Positions 12,363 to 60,084 of a stretch of 60,084 nucleotides of DNA are shown piece by piece. Position numbers and translations under genes: made by a program. Location: the NCBI GenBank assembly GCA_964344105.1, contig CAYFMD010000004.1:1-60084 (forward strand), read 5' to 3'. Below the pieces are notes generated by a model. It was not told the origin of the DNA, ran no database searches, and was given only the letters and a program-made list of their open reading frames with translations. The DNA is from Candidatus Woesearchaeota archaeon (GTDB taxonomy: Archaea; Nanobdellota; Nanobdellia; Pacearchaeales; GW2011-AR1). Position 1 is the first letter of the stretch; every line of letters begins with the position of its first letter.

Positions 12363-12402
12363 TTGGGATAGATGGGTTGATCATAATTAACCTTAAAAAA
12401 CC

Positions 12403-14822: not shown

Positions 14823-14852
14823 CCTAGATAGTAAGTTAGTGAGTTTAATAAC

Positions 14853-15506: not shown

Positions 15507-15639
15507 GCATAAGGCTGTTAATTAGATATTTTAAAGATTTATGTTGTTTTTTAGTTATTGGTTAATAAGATATTTTTAAGAGTCTAAGAATATTCTCTAT
15601 TAAAGCAAATATTATAAAGGGCGCATTTATTGCATTGCT

Positions 15640-16236: not shown

Positions 16237-16283
16237 TTTTGCATCACAGAAAACATTAAAAGTGAATAGGTGATAGGTAGGAT

Positions 16284-16997: not shown

Positions 16998-17713
16998 AAT
17001 TTGCATATTTTGGATATAGATCCTGGGCAGAGGATATTCTTAGAAATTTGGAAGATAGTGAATTTGAGATAGATGCGTTCACCATTCCTGATACAGAATA
17101 TAAGTCTAATAAATTTAGAGGTGAAGATATGAAAGTCTTTAATCCAAAAGAGATTGCTGATTTGGATTTAGGGGATTATGATGCATTGCTATTTTACGGA
17201 TGGTCTTGGATAATCAAACAAGATATTGTTGATAGCCAGGTATGTATTTGTCTACATCCATCTCCTTTGCCAAAATATAGGGGAGGCAGTCCAATACAAC
17301 ACCAGATAATTAATGGAGAGGATGAAAGTGCAGTTAGTTTGTTTAAGATGGGCAAGGAATTGGATGATGGGCCAATTTACTATCAAGAAAATTTTTCTTT
17401 AGATGGGAGGTTGAAGGATATTTTTGATAGAATAGTTGAGATTGGAGGCAGGCTGACTATCAAATTACTAAAAGATTTTGTTGAAAATAAGGCTAATCCG
17501 GTTGAGCAAGATCAGAGCTTGGCTACAGAATATAAGAGAAGAAAGCCAGAGGAAAGTGAGTTAACTGCTGATAAGATTGCAGAAATGACTGGTAGGCAGA
17601 TATATGATTTTATTAGAGCGCTAGAGGATCCGTATCCTAATGCTTACATTTTAGGCAGTGATGGAAAGAAGGTTTTACTGAAATTAGCTGATTTTGAAGA
17701 TGGTACTGATTGA
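16994..17713 (+). CDS. Formyltransferase (Fmt/sugar N-formyltransferase-like)
   Basis: CLHPSPLPKYRGGSPIQHQIING and ELDDGPIY match the formyl_trans_N catalytic His/Asp region. Confidence 0.75.
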   Translation: MKFAYFGYRSWAEDILRNLEDSEFEIDAFTIPDTEYKSNKFRGEDMKVFNPKEIADLDLGDYDALLFYGWSWIIKQDIVDSQVCICLHPSPLPKYRGGSPIQHQIINGEDESAVSLFKMGKELDDGPIYYQENFSLDGRLKDIFDRIVEIGGRLTIKLLKDFVENKANPVEQDQSLATEYKRRKPEESELTADKIAEMTGRQIYDFIRALEDPYPNAYILGSDGKKVLLKLADFEDGTD

Positions 17714-43498: not shown

Positions 43499-44217
43499 TT
43501 TTCTAATTCAACAAATGCTCTTTCTATATTTAGGGCATCTCTTAGATTGATCATTGGATTATTGATATTAACTATATCATCTGTTCCGATTCTTGGGCAA
43601 GCAGTGTTAACCCAGCAATCAATGAAAGGATAGTTTTCATAATTGCTTGGATTTAGTGTATCATCAATGAAGATATAGGCTCTCTTGTCTTCCTTTTCCA
43701 ATTTTTCTTTTAGTTTCTTTGCTGCCAAAAAATATTGTTGCCCAGGTTTTATGGTTACTAAAATTCCAACTGTTTTTGCAGTTAAGTATTTCTTTAGATT
43801 TGCCTTTTTTCTATTGAGTTCTTTCTGCATATCTTTTCTATCTACAATTTTTATTCTGTCGCTTATTGGATCAAAAATTGTAATTGGTTTGTCTGTTGCT
43901 AGAATTAATGCCTTTGGATGGAACATTCCATCCCCTAAATATAGAATCATGTCCGATTTTAGGGATTTTTCAAATGAATCTGGATAGCAATCACAGCCTA
44001 GAATTTGTAATGGCTTGTTGGTTCTCTTTGCTTTCTGAATGTTAACTTTTATCTTTAATTTTTTTAGTTCTTTTAAGAATTCATTTATTTCTGCGAATTG
44101 TGTTGAGGCAAATAGGTCAATTGATTTTACCTTTTTCTTTTTAAGATGATCTTTAAGTTTCTTAGTAAGTTTTATTTCTCCTTCCCATTTAGCATCAATT
44201 AATAATAGTCTTGGCAT
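43495..44217 (-). CDS. dph2: Diphthamide synthase Dph2, C-terminal two-thirds (separate ORF)
   Basis: ILGCDC and NTACPRIG correspond to the 2nd and 3rd Fe-S Cys ligands of archaeal Dph2; starts directly after the TAA of ORF 44218-44478, same frame. Confidence 0.75.
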   Translation of the reverse strand: MPRLLLIDAKWEGEIKLTKKLKDHLKKKKVKSIDLFASTQFAEINEFLKELKKLKIKVNIQKAKRTNKPLQILGCDCYPDSFEKSLKSDMILYLGDGMFHPKALILATDKPITIFDPISDRIKIVDRKDMQKELNRKKANLKKYLTAKTVGILVTIKPGQQYFLAAKKLKEKLEKEDKRAYIFIDDTLNPSNYENYPFIDCWVNTACPRIGTDDIVNINNPMINLRDALNIERAFVELEK

Positions 44218-44478
44218 TTACCACATCTCCTTGTTAAATTTATTATGGCCCCATTGAACAACTAGATCAATATTTAGAATATCCATTCCTAAGGGCAAGT
44301 CACATGCACCGTAGCAGCTTCCTAACCAGATGAATGCCTTTGCAGAAGTTTGTTCTTCAACTGCATCAACTACTTGATCTGCTTTGTGTTTCATACCATC
44401 AGGTAATTGGATAAGAACTTGTTTAGCTTTTTGTTGTTTTATTGTTGAAATTAATTTATCTAATTCTAGTCTGTACAT
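44218..44478 (-). CDS. dph2: Diphthamide synthase Dph2, N-terminal third (separate ORF)
   Basis: VLIQLPDGMK...GSCYGACD...VVQWGH matches the Dph2 N-terminus, including the first Fe-S Cys ligand. Confidence 0.75.
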   Translation of the reverse strand: MYRLELDKLISTIKQQKAKQVLIQLPDGMKHKADQVVDAVEEQTSAKAFIWLGSCYGACDLPLGMDILNIDLVVQWGHNKFNKEMW

Positions 44479-46704: not shown

Positions 46705-47136
46705 CTACAGCAATCCCCTATCTCTAAGTTTATCTATTAATACAAATCCAGGTCTCCCTCGCTTTTCATCAGTCATCAAATTTTCCTTAAGTTGATCGTA
46801 AGTTAGCCATTCGAAACTCTTATGTTCATGAGAAAGATTGATATTATTATCTGGTTCTTCTAATTCGCAGAAGAAAAACACAGCATACCTATGTTCTTTT
46901 CCTTCCATGTCCCACATGTCAACACATACAGGCTCTTTTATTGTTACGTCCATTCCAAGCTCCTCTTCAACTTCTCTTTCTAGTGCTTTCTTAGGATCTT
47001 CATCTTCTTCATCTAACCTGCCTCCTGGCAAGACCCAAAGAGGAGTATTGTTAGAGGGCCATAGGATCAATAGTTTTTTATCTTTAAGAACTAAAGCGTA
47101 TTGTGCTATATTTGTAGTGAGATGGTTTTTCATCAT
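46705..47136 (-). CDS. NUDIX hydrolase
   Basis: Nudix box GGRLDEEDEDPKKALEREVEEELG. Confidence 0.85.
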   Translation of the reverse strand: MMKNHLTTNIAQYALVLKDKKLLILWPSNNTPLWVLPGGRLDEEDEDPKKALEREVEEELGMDVTIKEPVCVDMWDMEGKEHRYAVFFFCELEEPDNNINLSHEHKSFEWLTYDQLKENLMTDEKRGRPGFVLIDKLRDRGLL

Positions 47137-47348: not shown

Positions 47349-47467
47349 GAAGAAAGACAACTCGTGAATTTCACTTCCCTTCGGAAACTATTTCCACAAC
47401 ATAACCTGCTTAGCTTCCCTATTCGGAATGGTAAGGGGCGTTTCCAAGTTATTATGGTCGTCTTCAA
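47349..47467 (-). rRNA. 5S ribosomal RNA (ends uncertain by about 5 nt)
   Basis: Minus strand reads ..CCCUUACCAUUCCGAAUAGGGAAGCUAAGCAGG.., matching the conserved 5S loop B/helix III region; terminal helix GAAGACGAC/GUUGUCUUU closes the molecule. Confidence 0.75.
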
Positions 47468-47486
47468 TATTAGTGTGAAATTAGTG

Positions 47487-47494
47487 TTTATAAA
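47487..47494 (-). promoter_or_regulatory. TATA box (TTTATAAA) for the 5S rRNA gene
   Basis: Palindromic TATA element about 22 nt upstream of the proposed 5S 5' end, the usual archaeal spacing. Confidence 0.45.
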
Positions 47495-47539
47495 GCTTTT
47501 TATACCCCTAATTTCTAGAAACTATATCTTGCGGGGATG

Positions 47540-47592
47540 CCGCATAGGTTACTAACCACTGTTGCCAATCCGCAAAGGTACTAAAACCACTG
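47540..47592. repeat. Two imperfect 22/23-nt direct repeats (CCGCATAGGTTACTAACCACTG / CCGCAAAGGTACTAAAACCACTG) separated by 8 nt
   Basis: Read directly; located between the 5S promoter and the RHH/integrase genes, i.e. at the likely edge of the integrated element. Confidence 0.7.
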
Positions 47593-47704
47593 CGGAAACA
47601 TCGCAGCTGTTATCTGCTGTTCTCCTTCTCTTTTATGGAGCATGATCTTTTTCCAATTGTTACACTGGAACATAAGGAGTGAGGGTGTTTGAACTTCTTT
47701 CATT

Positions 47705-47854
47705 TTACCACATCTTTGCTTTCTTCAAAGCCTCCTCAATTATATCATTAACATTTGCATAATCTTCTTCCCCTTTAATCTGATATAATCTCCGACGGAG
47801 ATACGTTTTTACCGAAACAGTTGTCATTGCTCCATCCTCTTTCTTTTTAGCCAT
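47705..47854 (-). CDS. Small ribbon-helix-helix protein (49 aa)
   Basis: Hand-translated: MAKKKEDGAMTTVSVKTYLRRRLYQIKGEEDYANVNDIIEEALKKAKMW; beta-strand + two helices pattern; below the ORF-track cutoff. Confidence 0.4.
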   Translation of the reverse strand: MAKKKEDGAMTTVSVKTYLRRRLYQIKGEEDYANVNDIIEEALKKAKMW

Positions 47855-48067
47855 ATTTCAAGTAATTCATCCAGGTATATAAATTTTTCTATTAATCAAT
47901 TAACAAATTATTTCATGAAAAATCAAAAGATTTATTACTCCCAGTGTTTTAATTACCCCATTAAATAATTTAACCATTTGTTAATTTAATAAAATGAAAA
48001 ATGAAAATAACTACGGAAAGCAAAACAGTGCTTTTTTCTTTCGGTTTCTACAAAAAAGCATGCTAAA

Positions 48068-49393
48068 ATGTTACAACCGAAACAGAAGTTTAATCTTTTG
48101 GGAGATCTTATTATGATGGAAACACAAATTTCAAGCCTAAAACCACAGCTGCAAGGAATTAGGAGTTTTGTCATGAAAGGAGATAAAGAAAAAGAGGACA
48201 AGAATGCTTATGTTGATCCACATTATAGAATGAAATTATGGAATAATTGGAAGGAGAGAAATAAGAATGGTATTGAAGGAATTAGCAAAATAAACTCTGA
48301 CCTTGTTATGGGACATTTAATAGATATGGAACGTGGAGTTAATGTTTCCAAAATGTCAAAACCAGGTAGTAGAAGTGTTTCTCGCTTGCATCCATTGGCA
48401 TTTAATCTGAAGAAATTAGCATGGTGGTTTGAAGATTTATACAAGAAAGACATGGTTGATTTAACAGAAGATGAGGTGCTTGATTTCTTTCAACAATTAA
48501 AGGAAGGAGAGATTACAAAACTAGATGGTGATCCTTATGCTCCGAAAACTATCAATTGTTTTATTGAGAATTTTATCTCTTTTTGGCACTGGTTTATGCG
48601 GCTTGAATCAAGAAAAAGGAAAAAAGAGCTCATGGAAAAAGGCAAGACTGAAAGAAAAGAAATTTTTGATATTGTTGAATTTTTAACAGGTTTAGAACTT
48701 GAGAACAAATTTGTTTATTTTACTTATGAAGAGATGATAAGGGGTATTCAAAGTCTTGATGAAGATCACCAGATGTTATGTGAATTCTTGTTTGACTCTA
48801 TTGTGAGAAGTCCAACAGAAGTTGCTAATATTTATGTGAATGATTTAACGTTTGACAAGGATGGAACTGTTTATGCTTATGTTAGACAGAAAGTGAGCAA
48901 GACCTATGCGAGAAAGTTTGACCTACCTTTATGCGGACTAAAACTAAAGGAATACATAAAGAAGCATGAACTTAGACCAACCGATAGGCTGTTTGGATGG
49001 TATGATCCTCAATATTTCAATCCCAGACTGCAAAAGGCATTTGTTGCAGAATTTGGAGACATAATGACAGATGGAGATAAATCAATGTCTGAAATTACTG
49101 GTTATAGCTTTAGGCATGCAGGAACATGCCATTGGATTGATCAAAATGTTAACCCTTATGATTTAATGAAAAGAGGCGGCTGGAAAACATTATCTAGAAT
49201 AAACTACTACACAAAATTCTTGGGAAAAAATGCAAAACTGAGGACATATCCAGAAACAATAAACAAAGCTAACTCTAATCATGAAGACGTGAAAGCAATA
49301 TTGCTGGAAATAAAGAAAGAAAATGCTGAATTGAGAAAAGAAATACAGGTGATTAAAACACCAAAGCCAATGGAGGTTGCCCAAAATGTCTAA
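48068..49393 (+). CDS. Tyrosine recombinase / integrase
   Basis: Catalytic-domain pattern: VRSPTEVANI (Arg box), YSFRHAGTCHW (R-H), RGGWKTLSRINYYTKF (W and nucleophile Tyr); true start may be an internal Met. Confidence 0.8.
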   Translation: MLQPKQKFNLLGDLIMMETQISSLKPQLQGIRSFVMKGDKEKEDKNAYVDPHYRMKLWNNWKERNKNGIEGISKINSDLVMGHLIDMERGVNVSKMSKPGSRSVSRLHPLAFNLKKLAWWFEDLYKKDMVDLTEDEVLDFFQQLKEGEITKLDGDPYAPKTINCFIENFISFWHWFMRLESRKRKKELMEKGKTERKEIFDIVEFLTGLELENKFVYFTYEEMIRGIQSLDEDHQMLCEFLFDSIVRSPTEVANIYVNDLTFDKDGTVYAYVRQKVSKTYARKFDLPLCGLKLKEYIKKHELRPTDRLFGWYDPQYFNPRLQKAFVAEFGDIMTDGDKSMSEITGYSFRHAGTCHWIDQNVNPYDLMKRGGWKTLSRINYYTKFLGKNAKLRTYPETINKANSNHEDVKAILLEIKKENAELRKEIQVIKTPKPMEVAQNV

Positions 49394-49811
49394 AGGAGAA
49401 ATTATGGCTATAAGCCCTAAAAACAGGGGCAAGTATCCAGATAAGATTGTTGTGTTATTGAAAGACGAAACTAATTATGAAAAATGGAGAGTTGTTGCTG
49501 ATGCCATAGGGGAGGATAGTGTGAAAAGAGGATATTGTGAGTTTGAATTGAAATATAACACTATAACACAGCTTAAACTGATTAATAAGCCCATACAGCA
49601 GCCTGAACAGTCTGTAAGCAAAGAAATGCCAGAAGGACATACATTCCCTATTGAAAAACTAGATATTGTTGCATTGTCTAATGAAATAAACAAACTAAAT
49701 AAAAAACGCAGAGTGGCAGCAACTCAAGTATTCCCACTTAAATCAGATGGCAAGCCGCTATACAATGCACTTGTTTACTTTGAGGAGCCTAGAAAATGGA
49801 AGAAGAAATGA
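49377..49811 (+). CDS. Hypothetical protein
   Basis: 144 aa ORF overlapping the integrase stop; no recognisable motif. Confidence 0.35.
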   Translation: MPKMSKGEIMAISPKNRGKYPDKIVVLLKDETNYEKWRVVADAIGEDSVKRGYCEFELKYNTITQLKLINKPIQQPEQSVSKEMPEGHTFPIEKLDIVALSNEINKLNKKRRVAATQVFPLKSDGKPLYNALVYFEEPRKWKKK

Positions 49812-49945
49812 TTGAATGTGAAAATTGTGAAGTGCTTTTTGTGCCAGATGAACTTGATGAAGTTGAGAGCAGCAATGGAGTCGTTGTTACAGTGTGCAAA
49901 GGCTGTTTGTGCATACTAGAGGAATTTTATAATTTTAATGGGTGA
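49796..49945 (+). CDS. Small zinc-ribbon protein (49 aa)
   Basis: Hand-translated MEEEMIECENCEVLF...VCKGCLCILEEFYNFNG with CxxC...CxxC; overlaps neighbouring ORF ends in operon fashion. Confidence 0.35.
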   Translation: MEEEMIECENCEVLFVPDELDEVESSNGVVVTVCKGCLCILEEFYNFNG

Positions 49946-50129
49946 GCTTATGATGGAGAAGAAATTAAAAAAGTTAAAGGAATTTTTAAAAGAGGAATTA
50001 AAAGATTGTTTAGAATTGCAGAATAAAAAGGAATTGACAATGGAAGGTTATGGTATGCTAATTATGATAAAATCAATCTATGAAAAGATGAATTGGAAGC
50101 TTCCAGATGAAGATGCGGAAGATTTATAA
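49938..50129 (+). CDS. Hypothetical small helical protein
   Basis: 63 aa, Lys/Glu-rich; no motif. Confidence 0.3.
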   Translation: MGELMMEKKLKKLKEFLKEELKDCLELQNKKELTMEGYGMLIMIKSIYEKMNWKLPDEDAEDL

Positions 50130-50149
50130 AGTTGATATATATTGTAATG

Positions 50150-50743
50150 TCATACTTGCGAGGTGCCGTCATCTGATGGCACTGACGCTTCATCTTTCTT
50201 ATTTAATTCTATGACTAGCTTGTTCATATTGATGGAAAAATTACAGGATTTTCTTAACTTAAATGAGGAGGTTCTTCTAAAATAACCATTGCCCACCTTT
50301 TTCTTGAATTCGCCTCTCACTGATTTAATAACAGGGATAAAATCTGCATCACCACTTAAAATAATAGCAATATCATAAGTGTCTTTGAATGCTCCCATTA
50401 ATAAGTCATGTGCTAGATGGATATCATCCCCCTTAATATCATATCTAACTGTGCCATCCTTCCTTACTATTTTTCTCCAATCGCACAATATCACCTTGAA
50501 TTTTGGAATTTTCTTTAAATCATCAAGATATTCTTTATGCTTTTCATATTTCTCTAGATTATACTCTTTGTCTAATAGGGCATTGTAATAAAAAACAGTC
50601 ACAAGTTCTCTATTCCCCACTAACTCATCCACTATCTTTCTAAAACTAATTTCATAACCCTTTTCTTCTAGGTGTTTTGAACTGTGGTAAAAATTCCTTC
50701 CGTCAACAAATAGTGCAACTCTTACAATTTTTCTCTTTTTCAT
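50150..50743 (-). CDS. NYN-domain (LabA/DUF88-like) putative ribonuclease
   Basis: VALFVDGRNFYHS and IILSGDADFIPVIKSV acidic NYN motifs. Confidence 0.75.
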   Translation of the reverse strand: MKKRKIVRVALFVDGRNFYHSSKHLEEKGYEISFRKIVDELVGNRELVTVFYYNALLDKEYNLEKYEKHKEYLDDLKKIPKFKVILCDWRKIVRKDGTVRYDIKGDDIHLAHDLLMGAFKDTYDIAIILSGDADFIPVIKSVRGEFKKKVGNGYFRRTSSFKLRKSCNFSINMNKLVIELNKKDEASVPSDDGTSQV

Positions 50744-51009
50744 TGTGTATCCTTTGATTTAAACATAGAAGTAAATAAATCCTTGCCTTTTTCACTTCTT
50801 TCATACAATCTGTGTCGCTTCTCATCTGGATTTAAGCATACAACTAGATTTCTTTCCAAAAGAGAGATTATCATGTTGCTTACATGTCCAATGTTCATGC
50901 CCAGATCACTTGCAAGTTGTGTTGGTGTTTTTGGCTCATCTAAAGCCTCAAACACCTTCTTTCTATGTTCAGACCTTACAATGAAACTGTAGTCTTTCCA
51001 GTTTTTCAT
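50740..51009 (-). CDS. Winged-helix (ArsR/MarR-like) transcriptional regulator
   Basis: KVFEALDEPKTPTQLASDLGMNIGHVSNMIISLLERNLV; 4-nt ATGA overlap with the NYN gene. Confidence 0.7.
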   Translation of the reverse strand: MKNWKDYSFIVRSEHRKKVFEALDEPKTPTQLASDLGMNIGHVSNMIISLLERNLVVCLNPDEKRHRLYERSEKGKDLFTSMFKSKDTQ

Positions 51010-51148
51010 AGATAGAAGTGCTTATATACTATTTAATAGTTACACGAATAGTACGTGAGTAGTACACACTTGTCAAAAATAACCTATTATTAGAAAGAAA
51101 CTTTAGGAAAACGACAATGCTTAAAACATTATTCAAGATAAATTTGAA

Positions 51149-51457
51149 ATGGAAGAAATAAAAAAATTTACAGGTTTTGTAACGAGAAGCGACTCAGAAA
51201 ACAGTATTTTGAACCTTAAACTAGATGAAATTCCAGATGAAGAATTTAACAAGCTGCTAACCAATTCTGATAAGATTGAAGTTAAGACAAATAAGAGGTC
51301 TATAATTGGCAATATTGTTGGCGGGAGCGATCCCACAAGACCTTTGAGATTTAAGGGTATAGAGATAAAGCCGCAACAACAATTAACTATCTTGGCTGAT
51401 CAAAAACTAGAAGAAGACATTAAAAAAACAAAGGCAGAATTAATATTTAACGCCTGA
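51149..51457 (+). CDS. Hypothetical protein
   Basis: 102 aa ORF divergent from the wHTH-NYN pair; no motif. Confidence 0.3.
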   Translation: MEEIKKFTGFVTRSDSENSILNLKLDEIPDEEFNKLLTNSDKIEVKTNKRSIIGNIVGGSDPTRPLRFKGIEIKPQQQLTILADQKLEEDIKKTKAELIFNA

Positions 51458-51579
51458 TTTGGTTAAATTATAAAACAAATGGGATAAAATTTTTAAGCTT
51501 TTTCTCACAGAGTATACATCTCCTAAAAACTAATATATGTTCTGACAAAGAATAAAAGAGCCCAAAATTTCTTAACTAG

Positions 51580-52635
51580 ATGATGAAGAGAGATAATAAA
51601 AGAAGTAAAAAAGTCTATCTAAATGTTAAGGAAAGAGAGTTGTTGAAAATTCTTTTGAAAAATGGTAGGACCTCAAACTCAAAAGTTGCAAGAAAGTTGA
51701 AAGTCACTCCACAAGCAGTTGGAATGATGAGAAGAAAACTAGAATCAATTGGCATTATCAAAGATTACACTGTTGAATTAGATCTTGATCACATGGGAAT
51801 AAATACCTTTGTTATCGTCTTATTTGATATGGATCCATTGCATGAAGACAAATTGATAACTCCAAACATGATTAGCTTTTGTAAGGTTATTACAAACTCT
51901 GCAACGCACATTGCATTGTATGCGTTTGAGGATTTAGATAAAATGGACGATCACTTCAAAAAATTAGAGTCAGAAAATTCAGACATTTTGAGGATAGTTG
52001 AAATGCATGTTTGTCCAACAAAAGGTGTATTGGAAAAATCATCAAGAAGTTTGTTCTATGATGCACTCAAAAACTATAGTAAGGATCAGCACTATTTGCC
52101 GCTAGACATTCCTTATCATGCACCTAGAAAAAGAAAAAAACAAAGTAGGAAACTGACATTAAACGAAAAGAAAGTACTAAAATTTTTTATCAAAGATGGC
52201 AAAATTCCATGTAGGAAAATATCAGCAAAACTAGGAGAACCAAAGATTACTGGAAATAGTATCAATAGAATAAAGATGAGATTAGAAAGGAGAAAAATAA
52301 TCAAAGGATATTCTGTAAGATTAGACTACAAAAAATTAGGTATCAATGTTTTTGCATTTATCCTCATGTCAAGAAAATCTAGTTTTTTAGATGAATATGG
52401 CTGTTTGACTAAATGGGCCAGAAATTCTCCAAATGTTACCTCTTGCCTTAGGCTGAATGAAGACAATATGTACGCCTTATTTTGCGGATTCAAAAACTTG
52501 GAAGAATTGAAGAACTACTGTCATTTGTTACAAATCAAAAATAAAGACCTTTTCAAAATAAAACATATTTACATAACTTCGCCAGATGATATTATTAAGG
52601 ACTCTTTAGATAATTTGTTCTTGAGTTTATTGTAA
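51580..52635 (+). CDS. Tandem-duplicated Lrp/AsnC-like regulator (two HTH + effector-like halves)
   Basis: Two repeats: ERELLKILLKNGRTSNSKVARKLKVTPQAVGMMRRKLESIGIIKDYTVELD and EKKVLKFFIKDGKIPCRKISAKLGEPKITGNSINRIKMRLERRKIIKGYSVRLD. Confidence 0.6.
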   Translation: MMKRDNKRSKKVYLNVKERELLKILLKNGRTSNSKVARKLKVTPQAVGMMRRKLESIGIIKDYTVELDLDHMGINTFVIVLFDMDPLHEDKLITPNMISFCKVITNSATHIALYAFEDLDKMDDHFKKLESENSDILRIVEMHVCPTKGVLEKSSRSLFYDALKNYSKDQHYLPLDIPYHAPRKRKKQSRKLTLNEKKVLKFFIKDGKIPCRKISAKLGEPKITGNSINRIKMRLERRKIIKGYSVRLDYKKLGINVFAFILMSRKSSFLDEYGCLTKWARNSPNVTSCLRLNEDNMYALFCGFKNLEELKNYCHLLQIKNKDLFKIKHIYITSPDDIIKDSLDNLFLSLL

Positions 52636-52684
52636 TTCAATTAAGATCAAAAAACTATATAAATCAAGAATACATTTCGTTAAA

Positions 52685-53293
52685 ATGAAAAGAGCGTTTA
52701 TTGCACTACTCCTTGTATTGTTAATATTTGGGTTTGCCCAAGTTAATGCCCAAGATGATGAGATTACAGAAACTAAAAATGCTGACAGATTAGAAGATCA
52801 AAAAAATAAATTAAGAGGAGTTTTAGAGAAGGGAGTAATTTTGCCAAATCAGATATCAAATATAGCAAAAATTTTATTTCAGATTAAAGAACCAGTTTAT
52901 TTAGGCAAGTTCATAGTATATTGTTGTTTCTTTTTATTAATTGTAATAATTTTATATAATATTGCAAGGTTAGCAGATTTTCCTGGTGGGAGATTTATTA
53001 TTTTTTTGGTAGTTTTAATATTGACACTAATAGGTTCTGTTGGAGGAGGGCTAAGTTTAATTGGAGAATATTACATAGGCCTATTAAATAACATCGCCCT
53101 CTTTGAAAAATTGCCAATTCTTGTAGTAAGTTTAACAATTATATTATTTTTATTGGTTATGTGGATAATAGGATTACTATCAAAATTTATGGAAGGAGAG
53201 AAAGGAATGGAAGATGCTTATGCTGATGGATTAGAAGTAAACAAAAACATAACCATAATAAAAAGATTATCAAATTTTATTAGAAAAAGTTAG
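52685..53293 (+). CDS. Membrane protein with signal peptide (member of a local family)
   Basis: Signal-like N-terminus (..FGFAQVNAQ), 4 TM helices, charged C-terminal tail. Confidence 0.45.
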   Translation: MKRAFIALLLVLLIFGFAQVNAQDDEITETKNADRLEDQKNKLRGVLEKGVILPNQISNIAKILFQIKEPVYLGKFIVYCCFFLLIVIILYNIARLADFPGGRFIIFLVVLILTLIGSVGGGLSLIGEYYIGLLNNIALFEKLPILVVSLTIILFLLVMWIIGLLSKFMEGEKGMEDAYADGLEVNKNITIIKRLSNFIRKS

Positions 53294-54033
53294 CGTCCTA
53301 GATCTTTTCTCATACCTTTGTTCATGCTAATCATTTCCTCTCTTGCTTGCTCAGCCTCATCTTTCTTCCTTTCTTCCTTTATTTGTTCAAGGTATTTACC
53401 GCATGCACTTTCAAGATAATAAATTAAAACCATAATGAAAAATATTACAATTCCCAATATTAATCTTACCCACTGATTTTCTGGAGATATTAACAACTTG
53501 TCAAGAAACTCAATTATAACTCTAAAAAACTGAAACTGTGCCAAAATAGTTACTATTAATAGAGAGATAAGCCATGAACTAATATTATCAAATATTTCAA
53601 TATAAGAAATAATCTTTGGCAATCCAAGAAAGATAGAAAGCCATAATACTACAATAAAAAACATTTTCAAGGAAAAGGTGTAAGGAACTCCAAATAAAAT
53701 CTTAGAAATTATCGACCATTCATTAAAAAATTCATCAGCACTAGAGACAAACCTATTTTTGAGTAGCATTTTCTTCCATTGTTCAGCTAGATAATCATCA
53801 TCTTGGTCACGAAACTCATCAATTTTATCCTTAATTTCTGTTATTTTGCGTGGTTCACCAGTATTTTCATCAATATCAAATTTCTGGATAAGGTCTCCAC
53901 CAGGAACTGAATTAAGAGGATTTGGTTGAGCAGTAGAGATGTTTAGCGTAAATAAAACTAAAAACAAGAATAGGATAAGTAAATTTAGAATTTTCATTTT
54001 TTTTCTATTAGCCATTTCCAGAGTGGAATGCAA
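53290..54033 (-). CDS. Membrane protein with signal peptide (member of a local family)
   Basis: Hydrophobic N-terminus ending ISTAQ, acidic ectodomain, 4 TM helices, Lys/Glu-rich tail; likely start is the internal MKILNLL near 53997. Confidence 0.45.
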   Translation of the reverse strand: MHSTLEMANRKKMKILNLLILFLFLVLFTLNISTAQPNPLNSVPGGDLIQKFDIDENTGEPRKITEIKDKIDEFRDQDDDYLAEQWKKMLLKNRFVSSADEFFNEWSIISKILFGVPYTFSLKMFFIVVLWLSIFLGLPKIISYIEIFDNISSWLISLLIVTILAQFQFFRVIIEFLDKLLISPENQWVRLILGIVIFFIMVLIYYLESACGKYLEQIKEERKKDEAEQAREEMISMNKGMRKDLGR

Positions 54034-55262
54034 TTAATCTTTTTATTTTTTCTCCTTATTTCAGATTCATAATCCCAGGTAATAAGCAAAAGATTGTTAC
54101 ATCTCAACTCCTCAGACCCTTTTATTAAAGAATCTATCTCTCTTTCTTGAATCTCTTCCTTGGATCTTATATAACTAACTTGAACTAATTGTTTTATTGT
54201 GTCTCTCTCTTTAATAACAAAATCTATCTCTTTTTGTTGATGGTTTTTCCAGTAATAAACTTCTAAATTATAATTTTGTGATTTTCTTCTTTGTAGTTCA
54301 ATTGCAACACTATTTTCAATTATCTTCCCCTTATTTTCTGAAAATTTAAATCCAATAAGATTAACAAGTCCTGTATCCATACAATAAATCTTTTTTGGGG
54401 CAATAAATTGTTGTTTTAATTTAAAACTAAATCTTTCTAATTCGAAAACTAGGAAAACTTCCTTAAAATAGGATATCCAATTTGAAACAGTTGAAACGTG
54501 TTTTATACCTAAAATCTCTGCCATATTTGAATAACTTATTTCACTTGAAGCATTAGACAAAAGATATCTACCCAATTGCTTCAACTCATTTATCTTCTTA
54601 ATTTTATGCCTTAGTAAAATGTCTTTTGTAAGGATATCATCATAAATTTTAATTGCAGTAGTTTCTCCAAATTTATAGATCTCTGGAAATCCTCCCTTTT
54701 TTAAATAATCTTCTAGGAATTTTTTTATTTCTGATTTTTCTTGTGCTGTATATGTATTTTGAATCTTAAAATTATTATAATCTAAAAATTCCTTAAAAGA
54801 AAAAGGGAAAAGAACTATGTCTAAGTATCTTCCAGTAAGGTGGGTTGCTAGCTCTCCACTTAACAACTTTGAATTACTTCCAGTAATTATTAGTTTTTTA
54901 GTTCTGCGCAATCTATTAGCAAAAAGTTCCCATTTTTCTATATTTTGAACCTCATCCAATATAATGTACTCAACTTCACCATATAATTCATAAAAAGCCT
55001 GCAATATTTTATCTAAATCCTCTGCTTTGAGATTATAAATTCTCTCATCATCAAAATTAATGTAACCAAATTTTTTATCCTTTTCAACTAAATATGAAAA
55101 AACTGATTTACCACATCTTCTAACCCCTGTAATCACCAAAATGTTTGGGTGTAGAAGAAATTTTTTTGCTTGATCCAAGTTTTCACGCAGAATTATATTT
55201 TCTTGCTTAGCTATTTCTTCTATCTCTTGTCTCTGTTCTTTAATAACCTCTTTTATATTCAT
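53994..55262 (-). CDS. AAA-superfamily ATPase with DUF4143-type C-terminal domain (COG1373-like)
   Basis: Walker A ITGVRRCGKS, Walker B YIILDEVQ, typical about 420 aa length and C-terminal nuclease-like region (EIDFVI). Confidence 0.75.
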   Translation of the reverse strand: MNIKEVIKEQRQEIEEIAKQENIILRENLDQAKKFLLHPNILVITGVRRCGKSVFSYLVEKDKKFGYINFDDERIYNLKAEDLDKILQAFYELYGEVEYIILDEVQNIEKWELFANRLRRTKKLIITGSNSKLLSGELATHLTGRYLDIVLFPFSFKEFLDYNNFKIQNTYTAQEKSEIKKFLEDYLKKGGFPEIYKFGETTAIKIYDDILTKDILLRHKIKKINELKQLGRYLLSNASSEISYSNMAEILGIKHVSTVSNWISYFKEVFLVFELERFSFKLKQQFIAPKKIYCMDTGLVNLIGFKFSENKGKIIENSVAIELQRRKSQNYNLEVYYWKNHQQKEIDFVIKERDTIKQLVQVSYIRSKEEIQEREIDSLIKGSEELRCNNLLLITWDYESEIRRKNKKINCIPLWKWLIEKK

Positions 55263-55359
55263 CTTATCTTTGTTTACTAATAGAAAGCTTTTATATAAAG
55301 TTTTCTATTAAAAGATTAAGAATTAGTAAAACAATTGAAAATAATTTATTAGCTAAAGG

Positions 55360-56244
55360 CTATACTTCAGATAAATCTCCATATAGATCTTTTAGTTGCT
55401 TCAATTTTCTCTTAGATCGGTCATGATCCTTCTTAGATGCAGTTTCATCAGCAATAATGCTATGATATTCAGCAATCTTTTCTCTTAAATTCTTTCTTTG
55501 AAGGACTCCAAGATCGTCCAGGGTATTATCAACCTCAGCTTTAGCAAAAGCGCTTCTAATAAAGCTTCCAATAGATGAATTAAAGAGCAACATAATAATC
55601 GCTAAAATGATAAAAACTATATATGCTATGAGAACACTTTTAGCAACCTTCCCCCAAGCTTCATAAATGACAACGGTAAACATAATAATATAACCAGTCC
55701 ATCCCAAGAGAACTACTAAAGGACGCCTCTGAGCCGAAACGGACAAAATAAACAGAGGTATAAAAACTATTCCTGCAAGTACTGTTGCAACAAATGCTGA
55801 TGAGGGGACTGTAAGTGCCGACCACATATTTTGAGGTAAAAACCTAACTCCTATGGCAGAAACAACTATTCCAGAAACAAAGTTTAGAATTCCACTACTA
55901 GAACCTTCTCCAAAAATATCTGCAGCATCTAATGTAGCTGAAACTATAATAAAAATTAAGATAAATGTAACAATCATTAAAAATTGAACATCAGCCGGTC
56001 TTGCGTCTAAATTCAATAAACCTCCAAGTAATGGCTTAAAAATAGATTTAAAAAAACCAGTTACATCATCTATAGCATCTCCAAAAGCTTGATCGGGGCT
56101 TACATTATTATTGAAAATAGAATATAATCCAACAATACCTATTAACAAAACAAAAGCTACAATAACTCCTCCAACAACTTTTGTTGCAGTGCTAGTCTGT
56201 CCTTTTTTATTTCTCAATAACACCCTTTTCATAATTAATAACAA
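55360..56244 (-). CDS. Polytopic membrane protein with charged coiled C-terminal tail
   Basis: 294 aa, about 6 TM helices, tail LREKIAEYHSIIADETASKKDHDRSKRKLKQLKDLYGDL. Confidence 0.45.
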   Translation of the reverse strand: MLLIMKRVLLRNKKGQTSTATKVVGGVIVAFVLLIGIVGLYSIFNNNVSPDQAFGDAIDDVTGFFKSIFKPLLGGLLNLDARPADVQFLMIVTFILIFIIVSATLDAADIFGEGSSSGILNFVSGIVVSAIGVRFLPQNMWSALTVPSSAFVATVLAGIVFIPLFILSVSAQRRPLVVLLGWTGYIIMFTVVIYEAWGKVAKSVLIAYIVFIILAIIMLLFNSSIGSFIRSAFAKAEVDNTLDDLGVLQRKNLREKIAEYHSIIADETASKKDHDRSKRKLKQLKDLYGDLSEV

Positions 56245-56292
56245 TATTAGAAGTTTATAAACTTTTTTAAACTCTAAAACCTACAAAGTTTA

Positions 56293-57087
56293 ATGAAAAG
56301 AGAGTATGTGCTAAAGAGATATTTGTATTTGATAATCAGCTTATTTTTAATTCCTTCTGTTATCGCACAAAACAATATTGTTAGATCATTTGACTTCAAT
56401 CTTGCAAAATATTGGATAAATAGGGTTATTCATGCAATATTAGGATTTCTATCACCAGTATTCGAATTAATAATAGGAGATTACAATACTTCTGAATTTT
56501 TCTTCTCTAAGATTCTGTTGTTTATACTTTTGTTTATAATTATAAAAAATGTACTAGACAGAACTCCCATTGGAGAACATAACGAAAGGATAGGTTTTAT
56601 AATATCACTAATAGTTTCAATTCTTTCTATACGCTTTATTAATCAAAATAATTTCTTTGAATCAATATTTGTACAATATGGAACATTAGGCATAGCAATT
56701 ACTACTGTTTTCCCAATGGTTATCTTCTTTTGGTTTATTCATAACACAAACATCGGTTCATTCGGGAGAAGAATTGCATGGATCATTTACACTACTTCCT
56801 TAACTTTAATATGGTTTTCAAAGGCACAGATACCTGCAACTGCAGATTGGATATATCTTATTACAATTTCAGCTACAATAGTATTCGTACTATTTGACAA
56901 GAAGATTCACTCATATTTTGGAATTAATCATTTTAAATCGATTTTTAAAACAAACAACGAAAATCTTATTTTAGATGAAATGGAAAAATTGGAAAAATTA
57001 GAAAGATATGGAAAAGGCCTTCCAAACTATAAGAGGAGAAAAAAAGAAATAAAAAAGAGAATAGAAGATTTATCGAGAGAGGAATAA
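56293..57087 (+). CDS. Polytopic membrane protein with signal peptide and charged C-terminal tail
   Basis: Signal-like N-terminus (..PSVIAQN), about 6 TM helices, tail EMEKLEKLERYGKGLPNYKRRKKEIKKRIEDL. Confidence 0.45.
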   Translation: MKREYVLKRYLYLIISLFLIPSVIAQNNIVRSFDFNLAKYWINRVIHAILGFLSPVFELIIGDYNTSEFFFSKILLFILLFIIIKNVLDRTPIGEHNERIGFIISLIVSILSIRFINQNNFFESIFVQYGTLGIAITTVFPMVIFFWFIHNTNIGSFGRRIAWIIYTTSLTLIWFSKAQIPATADWIYLITISATIVFVLFDKKIHSYFGINHFKSIFKTNNENLILDEMEKLEKLERYGKGLPNYKRRKKEIKKRIEDLSREE

Positions 57088-57088
57088 A

Positions 57089-57583
57089 ATGATAAACAAT
57101 TATCTTTCCTATATTCTATCAACTAATTCATTGATTAATTTCTTGCTATTTCTTATAGTTTTTTATTTTACCTATATAACAACTTTCAGATTCTTCAAAC
57201 AAAGAGGGGTTGCAATTACGCTTGGGCTCACAACATCTCTTATAGCAATTTTTTATATAAAACCTAGTGAATTATTTTTTATCTTTAGTGCTTATGGGCT
57301 AACTGGAGCATTTGTTTTAATATTCGCACCTTTTTTATTTTGTTTATTTTTCATTTACTCATCAAATCTTGTAAGTGGTATGAGAAAGTTATTTTTTATA
57401 TTCTATGGGATTGTAACCATATTCCTATTGAATGACTATGGAAATCTTTCTCCACAAGATACAACATTTATAACGATGCTAATAATCTTATTATTAGTAA
57501 TCATAATCATATTTGACAAATTTATAAAAAATAAAATTACTTTCCCAAGAAAATTAATAAACAAGCAATTCAATGATAAATAA
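57089..57583 (+). CDS. Small polytopic membrane protein
   Basis: 164 aa, 4-5 TM helices; starts 1 nt after the stop of the previous membrane-protein gene. Confidence 0.45.
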   Translation: MINNYLSYILSTNSLINFLLFLIVFYFTYITTFRFFKQRGVAITLGLTTSLIAIFYIKPSELFFIFSAYGLTGAFVLIFAPFLFCLFFIYSSNLVSGMRKLFFIFYGIVTIFLLNDYGNLSPQDTTFITMLIILLLVIIIIFDKFIKNKITFPRKLINKQFNDK

Positions 57584-57587
57584 TATT

Positions 57588-57980
57588 TTATTTTTCTAAT
57601 CTAATAACTGTAATTGCTACTTTTTCTTCTTCACTTTGAACTTTAAACATTGTATGCTCAAAAATAAAACAATCATCCAATCCTAATGCATTAAACACAC
57701 TATCAATTAGAAACTTCTCTCGATTAGCAATATCTTTCTTCTTGACAGCTCCCTTTTTTGTATGCCAATTCTCATAAATTTCAACTGTAACAGAAAGCTT
57801 AACGTCCCTATACTTAAAAATAATATCCGGATCTTCTGAAAGGTAATCTTTGACTTTCTTAGTAATATATTTTCTCAATTCCTTACCTTCATTCTTTAAA
57901 TAAAAACTTCCAAACTTGTTGTGGCCATAGAGATGGTTTATTGTTGGCGTCTTCCTGTCTATTACTATTTTCATCATCAT
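57588..57980 (-). CDS. RusA-like Holliday junction resolvase
   Basis: TPTINHLYGHNK... and KKKDIANREKFLIDSVFNALGLDDCFIF align with E. coli RusA PPSNNRYYRHNR... and [29 protein letters not shown]. Confidence 0.55.
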   Translation of the reverse strand: MMMKIVIDRKTPTINHLYGHNKFGSFYLKNEGKELRKYITKKVKDYLSEDPDIIFKYRDVKLSVTVEIYENWHTKKGAVKKKDIANREKFLIDSVFNALGLDDCFIFEHTMFKVQSEEEKVAITVIRLEK

Positions 57981-58269
57981 TTATTAAAAGTTCAGGATAT
58001 CTCTCTACTAACTGAGCATATTCTTTATGAAATTGTAAATATGACCAACCCTTATCAGTTAATCTCACTATCTTTTTATTATATTGATAGTTTCTCGTAT
58101 TATCTATAATCACAAATCCTTTCCTTTTTAGTCGCCTTAATCCTTTATGTATTGTTGATACATCCGAACCCTTAGCTCTTGCTATCTCTGCATTAGTTCT
58201 CTTGCCATCTTTTATTTTTTCTAAGATTTCTTTTTGGCAATCCATCAAGTATCTAAACTTTTTTACCAT
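57889..58269 (-). CDS. Winged-helix DNA-binding protein
   Basis: RTNAEIARAKGSDVSTIHKGLRRLKRKGFVII; its 3' end overlaps the RusA-like ORF by 92 nt in another frame. Confidence 0.55.
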   Translation of the reverse strand: MVKKFRYLMDCQKEILEKIKDGKRTNAEIARAKGSDVSTIHKGLRRLKRKGFVIIDNTRNYQYNKKIVRLTDKGWSYLQFHKEYAQLVERYPELLINDDENSNRQEDANNKPSLWPQQVWKFLFKE

Positions 58270-58378
58270 TCTTTCTATTCAGATAACAAAGATCATTCTT
58301 GAATCCACATTTTCTGCAGAACCTACCAAATTGGCTTTCCTTGTATCTTGTGCTGTTGCATTTAGGACACTTCTTCAT
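58253..58378 (-). CDS. Small zinc-ribbon protein (41 aa)
   Basis: Hand-translated MKKCPKCNSTRYKESQFGRFCRKCGFKNDLCYLNRKNGKKV (CxxC...CxxC); overlaps the wHTH start by 17 nt. Confidence 0.35.
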   Translation of the reverse strand: MKKCPKCNSTRYKESQFGRFCRKCGFKNDLCYLNRKNGKKV

Positions 58379-58435
58379 TTTGCATTTCGACCAAATCAGT
58401 TCAAATTTTATAAATAAAAAATAAAAACAAACTGA

Positions 58436-58642
58436 CTAAATTACCTTATTTATAAAAGGCCAATCTCTCACGCCAAATACTGCTAGGACAACGCCTATTT
58501 CAGCTAGTAAAGATTGAATTGCTATGCTTGGATCCAGTGTTCCGTTCATCCATCCACCAACAGTTCCAATTATAGCAGACAATCCAACAAATGCTGCTCC
58601 CAGTTTAGTCTTTGACTGATACCATGCTTTTCCGCTGCTCAT
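58436..58642 (-). CDS. Small two-TM membrane protein (holin-sized)
   Basis: 68 aa, two hydrophobic helices; sits just downstream of the fibre genes on the minus strand; function is inferred from size and position only. Confidence 0.35.
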   Translation of the reverse strand: MSSGKAWYQSKTKLGAAFVGLSAIIGTVGGWMNGTLDPSIAIQSLLAEIGVVLAVFGVRDWPFINKVI

Positions 58643-58666
58643 CTTTTTTGCACCTCCTTATCATTG

Positions 58667-58906
58667 TTAATTAAGAAATTTCCCCTCCAGTTGTTTCATT
58701 TCTGTTTTTTCCTGACTGGTATTTTTTCTTGCAAAAAAAGCCTCAACTTCCAAAACTCTAGCTTTGAGTTCTTCTTTAGTCTTCCAACTATCATTACTAA
58801 TCCAATGAGAACGGCCATTGTCTAGTTTAACGTCTACTCCGTTTCCATTTTCTTTCACACTTGCAATTTTTACTTTTTTCTTTACCATCTTAAAATGCAT
58901 ATCCAA
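58667..58906 (-). CDS. Hypothetical small protein
   Basis: 79 aa; start overlaps the upstream fibre-like gene. Confidence 0.3.
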   Translation of the reverse strand: MDMHFKMVKKKVKIASVKENGNGVDVKLDNGRSHWISNDSWKTKEELKARVLEVEAFFARKNTSQEKTEMKQLEGKFLN

Positions 58907-59378
58907 CTGTGACGTTTATCGTCCCAACTTCATTTGCAGCCAAGGGAAGATCTGTTTCAGTGTTGGTATGATCATGATTAAACATGGTTGTAACACTGTG
59001 ATTATGGCCTCCTGGTGCATTATTTGATCCGCCTGAATTGTCAGGATCATTAGAACTTCCTGTTGAGCTTGTGCCAAAAGAACTTGAAGTTGTAACAGTT
59101 ACTCCTCCAGGTTGATTGGTTACTGATCCAGAAGCTCCATCATCAGTTCTGTCATATCGCAATTTTCTAACAACAACAGTAACTGCTGCCCCAGTCCTTG
59201 ATTTAAATTCAACTGATTTTGTCTGATTTCCAATAGATAACATAACAGCATTATCATCTACTGGAGTATTTGCTAGATTAATGATGAGCTCACCATTTGC
59301 ATCAGTATTTTGTCCAGTGAAGGACTCCATTGTAAAAACTTTTCCAGCATAGTTTGTCATTTTATTCTCATTACCCAA
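58890..59378 (-). CDS. Virion fibre/receptor-binding-like protein (Gly/Ser/Thr-rich)
   Basis: G/S/T/N-rich linker, GGHNHSV HxH motif like MdpB/tail-collar proteins; start overlaps the upstream tail-collar gene. Confidence 0.4.
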   Translation of the reverse strand: MGNENKMTNYAGKVFTMESFTGQNTDANGELIINLANTPVDDNAVMLSIGNQTKSVEFKSRTGAAVTVVVRKLRYDRTDDGASGSVTNQPGGVTVTTSSSFGTSSTGSSNDPDNSGGSNNAPGGHNHSVTTMFNHDHTNTETDLPLAANEVGTINVTVGYAF

Positions 59379-60084
59379 AACATCGTAACTGATGCTGGCC
59401 TCCCTTCTGTGCCTCCTGTTGAATCTGATGTTTGAGTTCCCGCAGTTCCAACCCCATCCCAGCCACTTGCCTGAGCAGAACTTCCACTGCCATCTCCAAT
59501 TGTAATTCCATGAGTATGCGCTTTAACTTGCGATGCCTCAGTAATTCCAGAAGTTGTTGCAGCCCCTCTGATAAATCTTCCATGAGTTTCTTCAGCAGCA
59601 GAATTAAGATCAGGAATAACAGCCCCATTGTAAATAGATTCAGCATCGCTTAATGTTTGTCCATTACATTCAACCCAATTATCAGGTAATTCTGTTGTTC
59701 CATAAATAGTGTAATTTTCATTTCCATCTGGGAAAACATCAACAGTCGCACTTCCTGCCTGAGCATCAGCCCTTAAGCTGATCTGCGTTTCAGAATCAAT
59801 AGTATCAACTATTGCATAAGTCCCATCAGTAGAATTATATACAACCATGCCAGTTGTTACTCCATCAGTTTGAAAGGTTGCACCTGTATCAACTAGTTTG
59901 TTTAAGGTGTCTGTAGTAGCTGTTCCAGAACTTACAGAATCAAATGTCTTATGCCAGGCAACAATACTTCCAATAGGAACTAATCCAAATTCCTGAGCAG
60001 GCCCTGAATTAATAACTTTCTCAATATCCTCAAAATAAGAAATAATCAGCTTCCCTTTTTCTGTTATTGAAACATCAACTTTGA
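59357..60084 (-). CDS. Phage tail-collar (MdpB-like) fibre protein, 5' end outside the window
   Basis: Frame stays open upstream of the track ATG (59848) to the window edge; VPIGSIVAWHK, LPDNWVECNGQTLSD..YNGAVIPDLN..GRFIRGA and AHTHG fit the tail-collar domain pattern. Confidence 0.6.
   Translation of the reverse strand, partial: KVDVSITEKGKLIISYFEDIEKVINSGPAQEFGLVPIGSIVAWHKTFDSVSSGTATTDTLNKLVDTGATFQTDGVTTGMVVYNSTDGTYAIVDTIDSETQISLRADAQAGSATVDVFPDGNENYTIYGTTELPDNWVECNGQTLSDAESIYNGAVIPDLNSAAEETHGRFIRGAATTSGITEASQVKAHTHGITIGDGSGSSAQASGWDGVGTAGTQTSDSTGGTEGRPASVTMFWVMRIK

Follow-up and report, generated by a model that had tools for sequence, protein, structure and literature searches.

Does the right-hand end of a 60,084-nt stretch of DNA from a Candidatus Woesearchaeota archaeon (contig CAYFMD010000004.1, positions 1 to 60,084; hereafter, the window) hold an integrated tailed virus? 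From position 47530 onwards the window encodes a tyrosine integrase, small putative regulators, a RusA-like resolvase and proteins with tail-fibre motifs. An earlier examination of the letters alone (hereafter, the sequence-only reading) had seen there a provirus or virus-derived island in a possibly DPANN-like archaeon, with capsid, portal and terminase genes, if any, lying beyond position 60084. We followed the locus past the end of the window and compared it with related loci. The region contains an integrated element of 13,946 bp, which starts at window position 47530 and ends 1.4 kb past the window end, and which is probably a defective provirus, the remnant of a temperate, Caudoviricetes-type (head-tailed) virus belonging to a lineage found in Pace- and Woesearchaeota (DPANN) genomes.

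Borders and integration site of the element

To see the whole element, we used an ENA contig (L001) recovered via the exact look-up of a 68-aa protein encoded near the end of the window. Positions 5755-17403 of this contig are 100% identical to window positions 60084-48436, and it contributes an extra 5754 b past the window, which yielded a composite locus of 65.8 kb. A 13-bp direct repeat, TGCGGGGATGCCG, occurs in exactly two copies in this composite. The left copy (attachment site attL core, 47530..47542, + strand) is a displaced copy of the first 13 nt of a tRNA-Leu(CAA) gene, whereas the right copy (attR core, L001 4351-4363, 1392 b beyond the window) makes up these same 13 nt in the tRNA-Leu(CAA) gene itself (L001 4278-4363). 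In a related strain, represented by contigs L025, L026 and L027 (reached via a look-up of the host RpoN protein; 82–93% nucleotide identity), the corresponding site is empty: the 5S rRNA/RpoN side directly adjoins an intact tRNA-Leu gene, and the two flank alignments overlap by exactly the 13-bp core. Since the 13-bp repeat stands at both ends and the related strain's site is empty, the block is a real insertion with both an attL and an attR. A recombinase at one end, a direct repeat matching a tRNA end and an unoccupied site with a single core are what characterizes elements integrated into tRNA genes by tyrosine integrases. The change in gene content noticed in the sequence-only reading is therefore genuine and the distal att repeat that it had proposed to look for exists, although the last host feature before the change is not a protein-coding housekeeping gene, as had been stated, but a 5S rRNA gene (47352..47465, − strand; Rfam RF00001, 55.9 bits, E 5e-9).

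Within these borders, Pfam and PHROGs searches with the 24 open reading frames (ORFs) gave no match to any family of capsids, portals or terminases. The expectation that such genes might lie beyond position 60084 fails because the element ends 1.4 kb further on: the part of it contained in the extension comprises only the rest of a 303-aa ORF cut by the window end, a 57-aa ORF, the gene for a 325-aa winged helix-turn-helix (wHTH) protein and the tRNA-Leu(CAA) gene. Compared with a complete tailed provirus, the element lacks the HK97-fold capsid, portal, large terminase and tail module, and only a distal fibre with a replaced N-terminus and its downstream partners are left.

Further repeats surround the cores. 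A 23-mer, AAAACCACTGCGGAAACATCGCA (47583..47605, + strand), which is a candidate arm-type binding site, has a 22/23 copy 55 nt inside attR (L001 4419-4441; blastn E 4e-5). Its central 9-mer, CCACTGCGG, occurs three times in the 65.8 kb against zero expected, always within 110 nt of the att cores, in a single orientation and on the element side of both cores (one copy at L001 4394-4402). To judge from this arrangement, the CCACTGCGG repeats around the cores would be arm-type sites, which would flank attP on both sides in the circular form. A 17-mer, TTTGAACTTCTTTCATT (47688..47704, + strand), recurs without mismatch near attR, where the 325-aa gene starts (L001 4476-4492; E 3e-4 to 2e-3). It spans the start codons (MKEVQ) of both this gene and a 40-aa ORF at the left end, and the repeats follow each other in the order core, 23-mer, 17-mer on the left and 17-mer, 23-mer, core on the right, all in direct orientation. 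Integration took place at the 5' end of the tRNA gene and would therefore have left the native TATA-like box behind at attL; the element has a TATATATA box of its own 21-28 nt upstream of tRNA-Leu, which presumably now drives this gene.

Among the contigs looked up, none carried a circular or attP junction. Several Logan contigs share a start point within the tRNA, 188 b upstream of the 325-aa gene; we considered them as a hint of an alternative junction and set them aside as uninformative, a plausible cause being the breaking of the assembly graph at conserved tRNA sequence. Likewise, the protein P0153 was rejected as a strain variant: it derives from the same DNA with a different start call, and the contigs L061 and L062 are 100% identical to the window.

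A chimeric regulator-fibre gene

The ORF at which the window breaks off (59357..60084, − strand, starting 184 b beyond the window end) encodes a protein of 303 aa that joins two parts: a wHTH domain (residues 1 to ~95) and a tail-collar-type fibre (residues ~97-303). The fusion junction lies at ~59969-60007, inside the window. The N-terminal half is 58–63% identical to standalone wHTH proteins of 108–130 aa from three related loci (L006, L007 and L033; alignment A1), and the C-terminal half is 44–58% identical to fibres of 231–260 aa that possess their own short N-terminus. In a word-indexed search of 5.8 billion proteins and an exhaustive HMMER search of 1.84 billion representatives, only the protein itself covered residues 1-303; the other matches covered either ~70-97 to 303 or 1-88. 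The junction also coincides with a step in guanine-plus-cytosine (GC) content, from 31% in the wHTH part to 41% in the fibre part.

The assignment of the C-terminal half as a fibre is based on matches to PHROG 1800 (E 1.2e-6 to 3.5e-7), as well as to PHROG 327 and 523, whereas its score against the Pfam Collar family (PF07484) was only 17.5–17.9 bits, below the cut-off of 24; its relatives P0015 and P0020 do carry PF07484. The sequence-only reading had listed at least two fibre genes with collar motifs. The motifs exist, with VPIGSIVAW, NWVECNGQ, IPDLN..GRFIRG and HTHG all in the 303-aa ORF and HNHS in a 162-aa ORF, but collar-type similarity is limited to the former; the 162-aa protein belongs to no recognized family and is instead a conserved neighbour of fibres. 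The last fibre gene does run off the window, as had been noted, but it is a wHTH::fibre fusion, apparently left by a deletion, and not an ordinary fibre gene.

The junction was found with 100% identity in the ENA assembly ERZ930068 and in the Logan assemblies of ERR2281802, ERR2281805 and SRR22722179, that is, in at least four runs processed by two pipelines. Its recurrence in these independent assemblies excludes an assembly artefact. Literature searches with the run and project accessions turned up no paper.

Gene order in intact relatives and a second remnant

Elements of the same lineage contain relatives of the fibre, of the 162-aa and 79-aa proteins encoded next to it, of the protein with two transmembrane (2-TM) segments, of the DUF4143 ATPase, the wHTH and the 325-aa protein, and of the integrase module; several of the contigs that carry these relatives also encode terminase, portal, HK97-type capsid, tail tube and tape measure. 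Together with the att repeats at a tRNA gene and the empty site, this bears out the earlier suggestion of a provirus or virus-derived island. In the related tailed viruses, relatives of the wHTH sit before the packaging genes and relatives of the fibre, of 220–260 aa, at the end of the tail module. Two IMG/VR contigs (L006 and L007) contain, in this order, a member of the 325-aa family (60% identity), the wHTH, a gene for 138–160 aa, ParB/methylase genes, the small and large terminases (TerS and TerL) and the portal. A provirus in a host contig (L032) shows an integrase, a 66-aa ORF, a 327-aa protein (62% identity), ParB, a methylase, TerL, portal, S78 protease and the major capsid protein SU10_MCP; the contigs L065/L066 have the same order, with a DUF4143 ATPase ahead and SU10_MCP present. 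The contig L089 overlaps the end of L032 at 81% nucleotide identity and continues with connectors, tube, tape measure, baseplate, fibre, a 157-aa protein and a 71-aa protein. The fibre also stands at the end of the tail module in L005 and L028, and in L028 homologues of the 162-aa and 79-aa proteins come next. The 325-family gene and its wHTH or ParB neighbour lie directly upstream of terminase/portal in four out of four relatives with virion genes (L006, L007, L032 and L065/L066).

Pieced together from these contigs, the gene order of the relatives is 325-aa protein, wHTH, ~19 kb of DNA-modification, packaging, head and tail genes, and then fibre, 162-aa protein, 79-aa protein and 2-TM protein. 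By comparison of gene content and order, the element is this same series minus the ~19 kb, with the two genes that flank the missing part fused to each other. Its history probably began when the tyrosine integrase put the ancestor into the 5' end of tRNA-Leu(CAA) via the 13-bp core, of which each end now has a copy. One internal deletion of ~19 kb, from the 3' end of the small early wHTH gene to the 5' end of the tail-fibre gene, would then have eliminated the genes for ParB/methylases, the small and the large terminase, the portal and the protease, the HK97-type capsid, the connectors and the tube, the tape measure and the baseplate, and left the in-frame wHTH::fibre fusion. What would remain of the virus is the att-adjacent 325-aa end, the opposite end with a ribbon-helix-helix (RHH)-like protein, the integrase, an NYN nuclease and an Lrp-like protein, the distal fibre trio, the 2-TM protein, RusA and a low-GC block of membrane proteins and ATPase. 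Such an element should be unable to form virions, but it may still excise, since the integrase and both cores are intact.

A second remnant was found beside a tRNA-Glu gene in a 157-kb Ca. Pacearchaeota contig (L043, JACPHA010000011.1). This 5.7-kb relative contains a 325-family gene followed, further along, by a wHTH, a 146-aa ORF, a 182-aa ORF, a homologue of the 63-aa protein of the integrase module, an integrase (46% identity) and a homologue of the RHH-like protein. The 182-aa ORF (12737-13285) is also chimeric: a ParB_N domain (50% identity to the ParB of L007, E 1e-10) is fused to an NYN domain that lacks the N-terminal DGxN motif. Its gene order suggests that L043 is an independent remnant produced by a different deletion in the same ancestral order, which points to decay by large internal deletions that spare both ends.

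Genes retained in the element

The gene list and coordinates of the sequence-only reading held up well: profile searches and hydropathy supported the integrase, the wHTH-NYN pair, the DUF4143 ATPase, RusA and the 2-TM protein. The RHH and zinc-ribbon calls fared less well, since the ORFs exist but neither the 49-aa 'RHH' protein nor the zinc-ribbon ORFs gave a significant profile match. The integrase end starts with this 49-aa basic protein, a putative RHH/excision regulator (47705..47854, − strand), encoded divergently from the 441-aa tyrosine integrase (48068..49393, + strand; PHROG_1, E 2.8e-14). The integrase scores only 21.9 bits against Pfam PF00589, below the cut-off, whereas relatives at 44–49% identity carry this domain, and the residues R247, R349-H350, W372 and Y380/Y381 are shared with the L043 homologue. 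Three small ORFs of 144, 49 (with a CxxC...CxxC motif) and 63 aa follow (49377..50129, + strand). Then comes a pair on the − strand (50150..51009), composed of a 197-aa NYN nuclease (50150-50743; Pfam NYN, E 1e-18; PADLOC HEC-09, E 7e-20) and, upstream of it, an 89-aa wHTH protein with weak matches (50740-51009). The module ends with a 102-aa ORF and a 351-aa protein with an N-terminal Lrp/AsnC-type wHTH (51149..52635, + strand; HTH_24, E 5e-11).

The best relative of this module is the contig L063, where the RHH-like, integrase, 144-aa, 63-aa, NYN, wHTH and Lrp-like genes are syntenic at 36–62% identity. In L063, the 49-aa protein has a homologue adjoining the integrase (34% identity; 47% in L043), the 144-aa and 63-aa proteins have homologues in the same positions (36% and 58%, the latter also in L043 at 54%), the wHTH/NYN pair is kept (62% and 46%) and a homologue of the 102/351-aa stretch occupies the same position (40%). 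Relatives of the integrase module and of the 325-aa gene probably lie together on a 44.7-kb contig (ENA ERZ27254745:k141_1476932). IMG/VR scans with the integrase (as a single sequence and as a two-sequence alignment), with an NYN alignment and with the 162-aa protein retrieved no relatives, nor did a metagenome scan with the integrase alignment.

The central part (52685..57583) has a GC content of 28.6%, against 33.8% in the host, and contains five multi-pass membrane proteins, as judged by hydropathy, arranged around an ATPase. They comprise 202 aa (52685-53293, + strand), 247 aa (53290-54033, − strand), 294 aa (55360-56244, − strand), 264 aa (56293-57087, + strand) and 164 aa (57089-57583, + strand), with 4–7 hydrophobic segments each; three of them are weakly paralogous. 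In most, the N-terminus resembles a signal peptide and the C-terminal helix is charged, and none of the five matched any family in Pfam, PHROGs or PADLOC. The ATPase (53994-55262, − strand) belongs to the AAA_14/DUF4143 type (Pfam E 7.6e-34 and 9.7e-27, respectively), matches the PADLOC hidden Markov model PDC-S01 over its full length (E 4.9e-109) and is 43% identical to the ATPase that adjoins the 325-family gene in the tailed-virus contigs L065/L066. By these profile matches, the ATPase (PDC-S01) and the NYN protein (HEC-09) would represent candidate defence families only.

On the other side of this block, the genes up to the window end lie on the − strand. A RusA-like resolvase of 130 aa (57588-57980) matches Pfam RusA (PF05866) over positions 7-123 of 124, with 36.6 bits against a cut-off of 22.8, and also PHROG 140. 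It is accompanied by a 126-aa wHTH protein with weak matches (57889-58269) and a 41-aa zinc-ribbon ORF (within 57588..58378). The 68-aa protein with two hydrophobic segments (58436-58642), a holin candidate by hydropathy, has a homologue (34% identity) ~0.8 kb downstream of the fibre gene in the tailed-virus contig L078, and the equivalent position in L089 is occupied by a 71-aa protein that also looks like a 2-TM protein by eye. Next to the chimeric gene, the 79-aa and 162-aa ORFs (58667..59378) are conserved partners downstream of tail fibres, with 61% and 54% identity, respectively, to the genes after the fibre in L028; the 162-aa protein is also 45% identical to the 157-aa protein after the fibre in L089. 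Neither matched a Pfam or PHROGs family. Exact look-ups of the 162-aa ORF and the 130-aa RusA ORF found nothing, probably because gene callers picked other start codons.

The att-adjacent 325-aa protein family

The gene next to attR (L001 4477-5454, beyond the window) encodes a 325-aa wHTH protein that belongs to a family of more than 518 members (47–62% identity, 325–335 aa). Those from named sources come from Woese- and Pacearchaeota, Nanoarchaeota and a few other archaeal bins. We found relatives in the loci L006, L007, L032, L033, L040, L041, L043 and L065, and in all seven loci with a readable flank the gene occupies the end of the element, next to either a tRNA gene or an integrase. The family has 22 invariant residues (e.g., R97, H99, H206, Y207, D238, E245 and E247); no known domain was matched beyond the wHTH, which was also all that a profile search of PDB sequences recovered. 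AlphaFold2 gave only poor models (pLDDT 60 from an alignment of 18 sequences, 64 from one of 86), and Foldseek comparison of the model with the PDB gave nothing below E 0.007, the top weak matches being Lrp/AsnC-type regulators and CutA/PII folds.

A copy with 59% identity occurs in another element from the same sample series (L033/L034), in a different host. There, tandem tRNA-Asp genes (L033 9646-9723 and 9899-9972) lie directly upstream of the 325-family gene and its wHTH partner; no morphogenesis genes were seen within 9 kb, which hold a block with a MoxR-type AAA_5 ATPase instead. This locus looks like a further integrated relative.

Alternative explanations

Several observations sit uneasily with a viral remnant. 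The membrane block and the RusA/126-aa wHTH genes have no relatives in any viral locus that we fetched, so part of the element may not be viral. In L063, the integrase module is followed by cellular-looking cargo, with no virion genes within the 14 kb seen. All ORFs of the element are intact and the fusion is in frame, which could mean that they are kept by selection, as a satellite or as cargo beneficial to the host. Finally, our searches brought up no parent genome that matches both flanks of the junction at high identity, and for this reason the deletion is deduced from the gene order of relatives that are 45–63% identical. The first two points would suit a non-viral, plasmid-like integrative island, in which a backbone of integrase, NYN and 325-aa genes captured the fibre trio, RusA and the membrane cargo by recombination. 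A backbone of RHH-like, integrase, NYN and Lrp-like genes does recur with cellular-type cargo in L063 and without virion genes in the 5.7-kb L043, and the DUF4143 ATPase and NYN protein match candidate defence families. However, deletions in the gene order of intact tailed viruses account for both halves of the fused ORF as well as for the chimeric ORFs here and in L043, the 325-family gene with its wHTH/ParB neighbour is directly upstream of terminase/portal in every relative with virion genes in view, and Pfam and PHROG scans found no plasmid replication or conjugation genes. We consequently regard such an island as improbable.

The intact ORFs and the in-frame fusion would agree with a helper-dependent satellite, or mobilizable mini-provirus, that has retained integration/excision, regulation and possibly a signal for replication or packaging and is packaged by a related intact tailed virus. 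Its integrase is intact, its att cores are identical and flanked by repeated motifs, its highly conserved att-adjacent 325-aa protein is common to bona fide tailed viruses, and a 59%-identical copy of that protein resides in another element of the same sample series; moreover, satellites of archaeal viruses are reported in a recent preprint (bioRxiv 10.1101/2025.02.15.638363). Yet the architecture is unique, without a conserved arrangement recurring in independent genomes, and L043, the only other remnant found, differs in deletion end-points, content and size, which fits random decay better than an evolved satellite family. In addition, Pfam and PHROGs searches detected no small terminase, capsid-remodelling or identifiable packaging function, and the circular/attP junction was missing from the contigs looked up. 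A satellite is thus an unlikely explanation. A more far-reaching version, to which we attach little weight, would see here a self-excising mini-element mobilized by a related intact virus, that is, a DPANN-hosted satellite born by deletion; the 325-aa protein might then be a master protein of replication or lysogeny, and recurrent in-frame fusions (wHTH::fibre and ParB::NYN) might be a regular route to satellites or domesticated islands. Much further from the evidence is a non-tailed virus, pleomorphic or spindle-shaped, present as a complete provirus, with the membrane proteins and the 68-aa protein building the virion and the collar protein serving as spike. Fusello- and pleolipovirus genomes resemble the element in its 14 kb, integration into a tRNA gene, small two-helix protein and several membrane proteins (with topology taken from hydropathy), but no PHROG or Pfam match to such structural proteins was obtained, the 68-aa protein and fibre trio have relatives in the tail/lysis regions of tailed viruses, and the supposed spike starts with a wHTH, a cytoplasmic DNA-binding domain, where fibres normally have their own N-terminus; this makes it very improbable. 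A mis-join of two contigs, which would have created both the short element and the fused ORF, might be suspected because the window contig ends inside that ORF, at 60084. Nevertheless, the junction itself lies inside the window and is unchanged in the independent assemblies mentioned above, which leaves hardly any room for an assembly artefact. A defective remnant of a head-tailed virus accordingly stays the preferred reading.

Host flanks

On the left, the 5S rRNA gene stands alone between the RpoN gene and the att site, and it is the direct neighbour of tRNA-Leu in the strain with the empty site. A NUDIX hydrolase gene (46705-47136, − strand), located between RpoN and superoxide dismutase, is absent from this related strain: the L025 alignment reaches 47137 and resumes at 46703, which constitutes a second small presence/absence difference near the element. 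Past attR, the host side encodes a 95-aa membrane protein, tRNA-Arg, an Rpr2-like protein (weak, sub-threshold Pfam match) and a CARDB surface protein, followed further out in L001 by ribosomal protein L21e, Rpb4, DUF655 and a DDE transposase. The latter (DDE_Tnp_1, L001 50-865) lies at the end of the contig, 5 kb past the window, and is probably the reason why the contig breaks there. Elsewhere in the window, the diphthamide synthase homologue (43495-44478, − strand) consists of two adjacent ORFs of 86 and 240 aa; since the same split exists in L025, the two genes are probably real, and a frameshift error is unlikely. Two other adjacent ORFs (2606-5044 and 5046-7484, − strand) encode exactly 812 aa each and may be tandem paralogues.

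Relation to known elements and implications

The relatives with names belong to Pace-/Woesearchaeota or Nanoarchaeota, and the DPANN-like host proposed in the sequence-only reading is therefore plausible, as judged from these relatives only. Its remark on the rarity of viruses in such small-genome archaea is outdated: head-tailed proviruses of Woesearchaeales/Nanoarchaeota ('WATPVs') have been published (PMC11705971), as have catalogues of DPANN viruses and mobile elements (PMC13573593) and, cited in the latter, DPANN virus families from metagenomes (Wu et al. 2024, Nat Microbiol). With these viruses the element shares the inferred host group and a tyrosine integrase with a tRNA-associated att site, and its genes have relatives in contigs with TerL, portal, S78 protease, SU10/HK97-type capsid protein, tube and tape measure; in contrast to DPANN tailed viruses, this copy lacks morphogenesis genes and measures 13.9 kb instead of the ~30–45 kb of its relatives, a comparison made by gene content. 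Its collar-type fibre carries the motif series NWVECNGQ...IPDLN...RF(I/L)RG...HTH of tail collar/MdpB-type fibres (PF07484) in the C-terminal ~115 residues, but the usual N-terminus of ~35 residues is replaced by the wHTH and the Pfam score is below the cut-off. Phage-inducible chromosomal islands and archaeal satellites are also small integrated elements with an integrase, regulators and genes in common with tailed viruses; here, by contrast, we found no conserved satellite architecture, no recognized packaging or capsid-redirection genes and no sign of a helper.

A parallel is found in bacteria. Defective prophages, such as the remnants in Escherichia coli K-12, are integrated at a tRNA or other att site, keep integrase, regulators, RusA-type resolvase and fibre fragments, and have lost structural genes via internal deletion. 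The element differs from them in its archaeal host and in the visibility of the deletion end-points as an in-frame regulator-fibre fusion.

Current concepts are not changed by this locus, a defective provirus remnant being an ordinary kind of object. It does illustrate that virus mining keyed on 'tail collar', RusA and integrase would over-call such a locus as a provirus. It also provides a base-exact example of integration at the 5' end of a tRNA gene in a small-genome archaeon, where the element apparently supplies the TATA box of the tRNA, and shows a mode of provirus decay in which single large internal deletions leave both ends in place. The family of 325–335-aa wHTH proteins at the ends of DPANN-associated elements is a possible marker gene for them and merits functional study.

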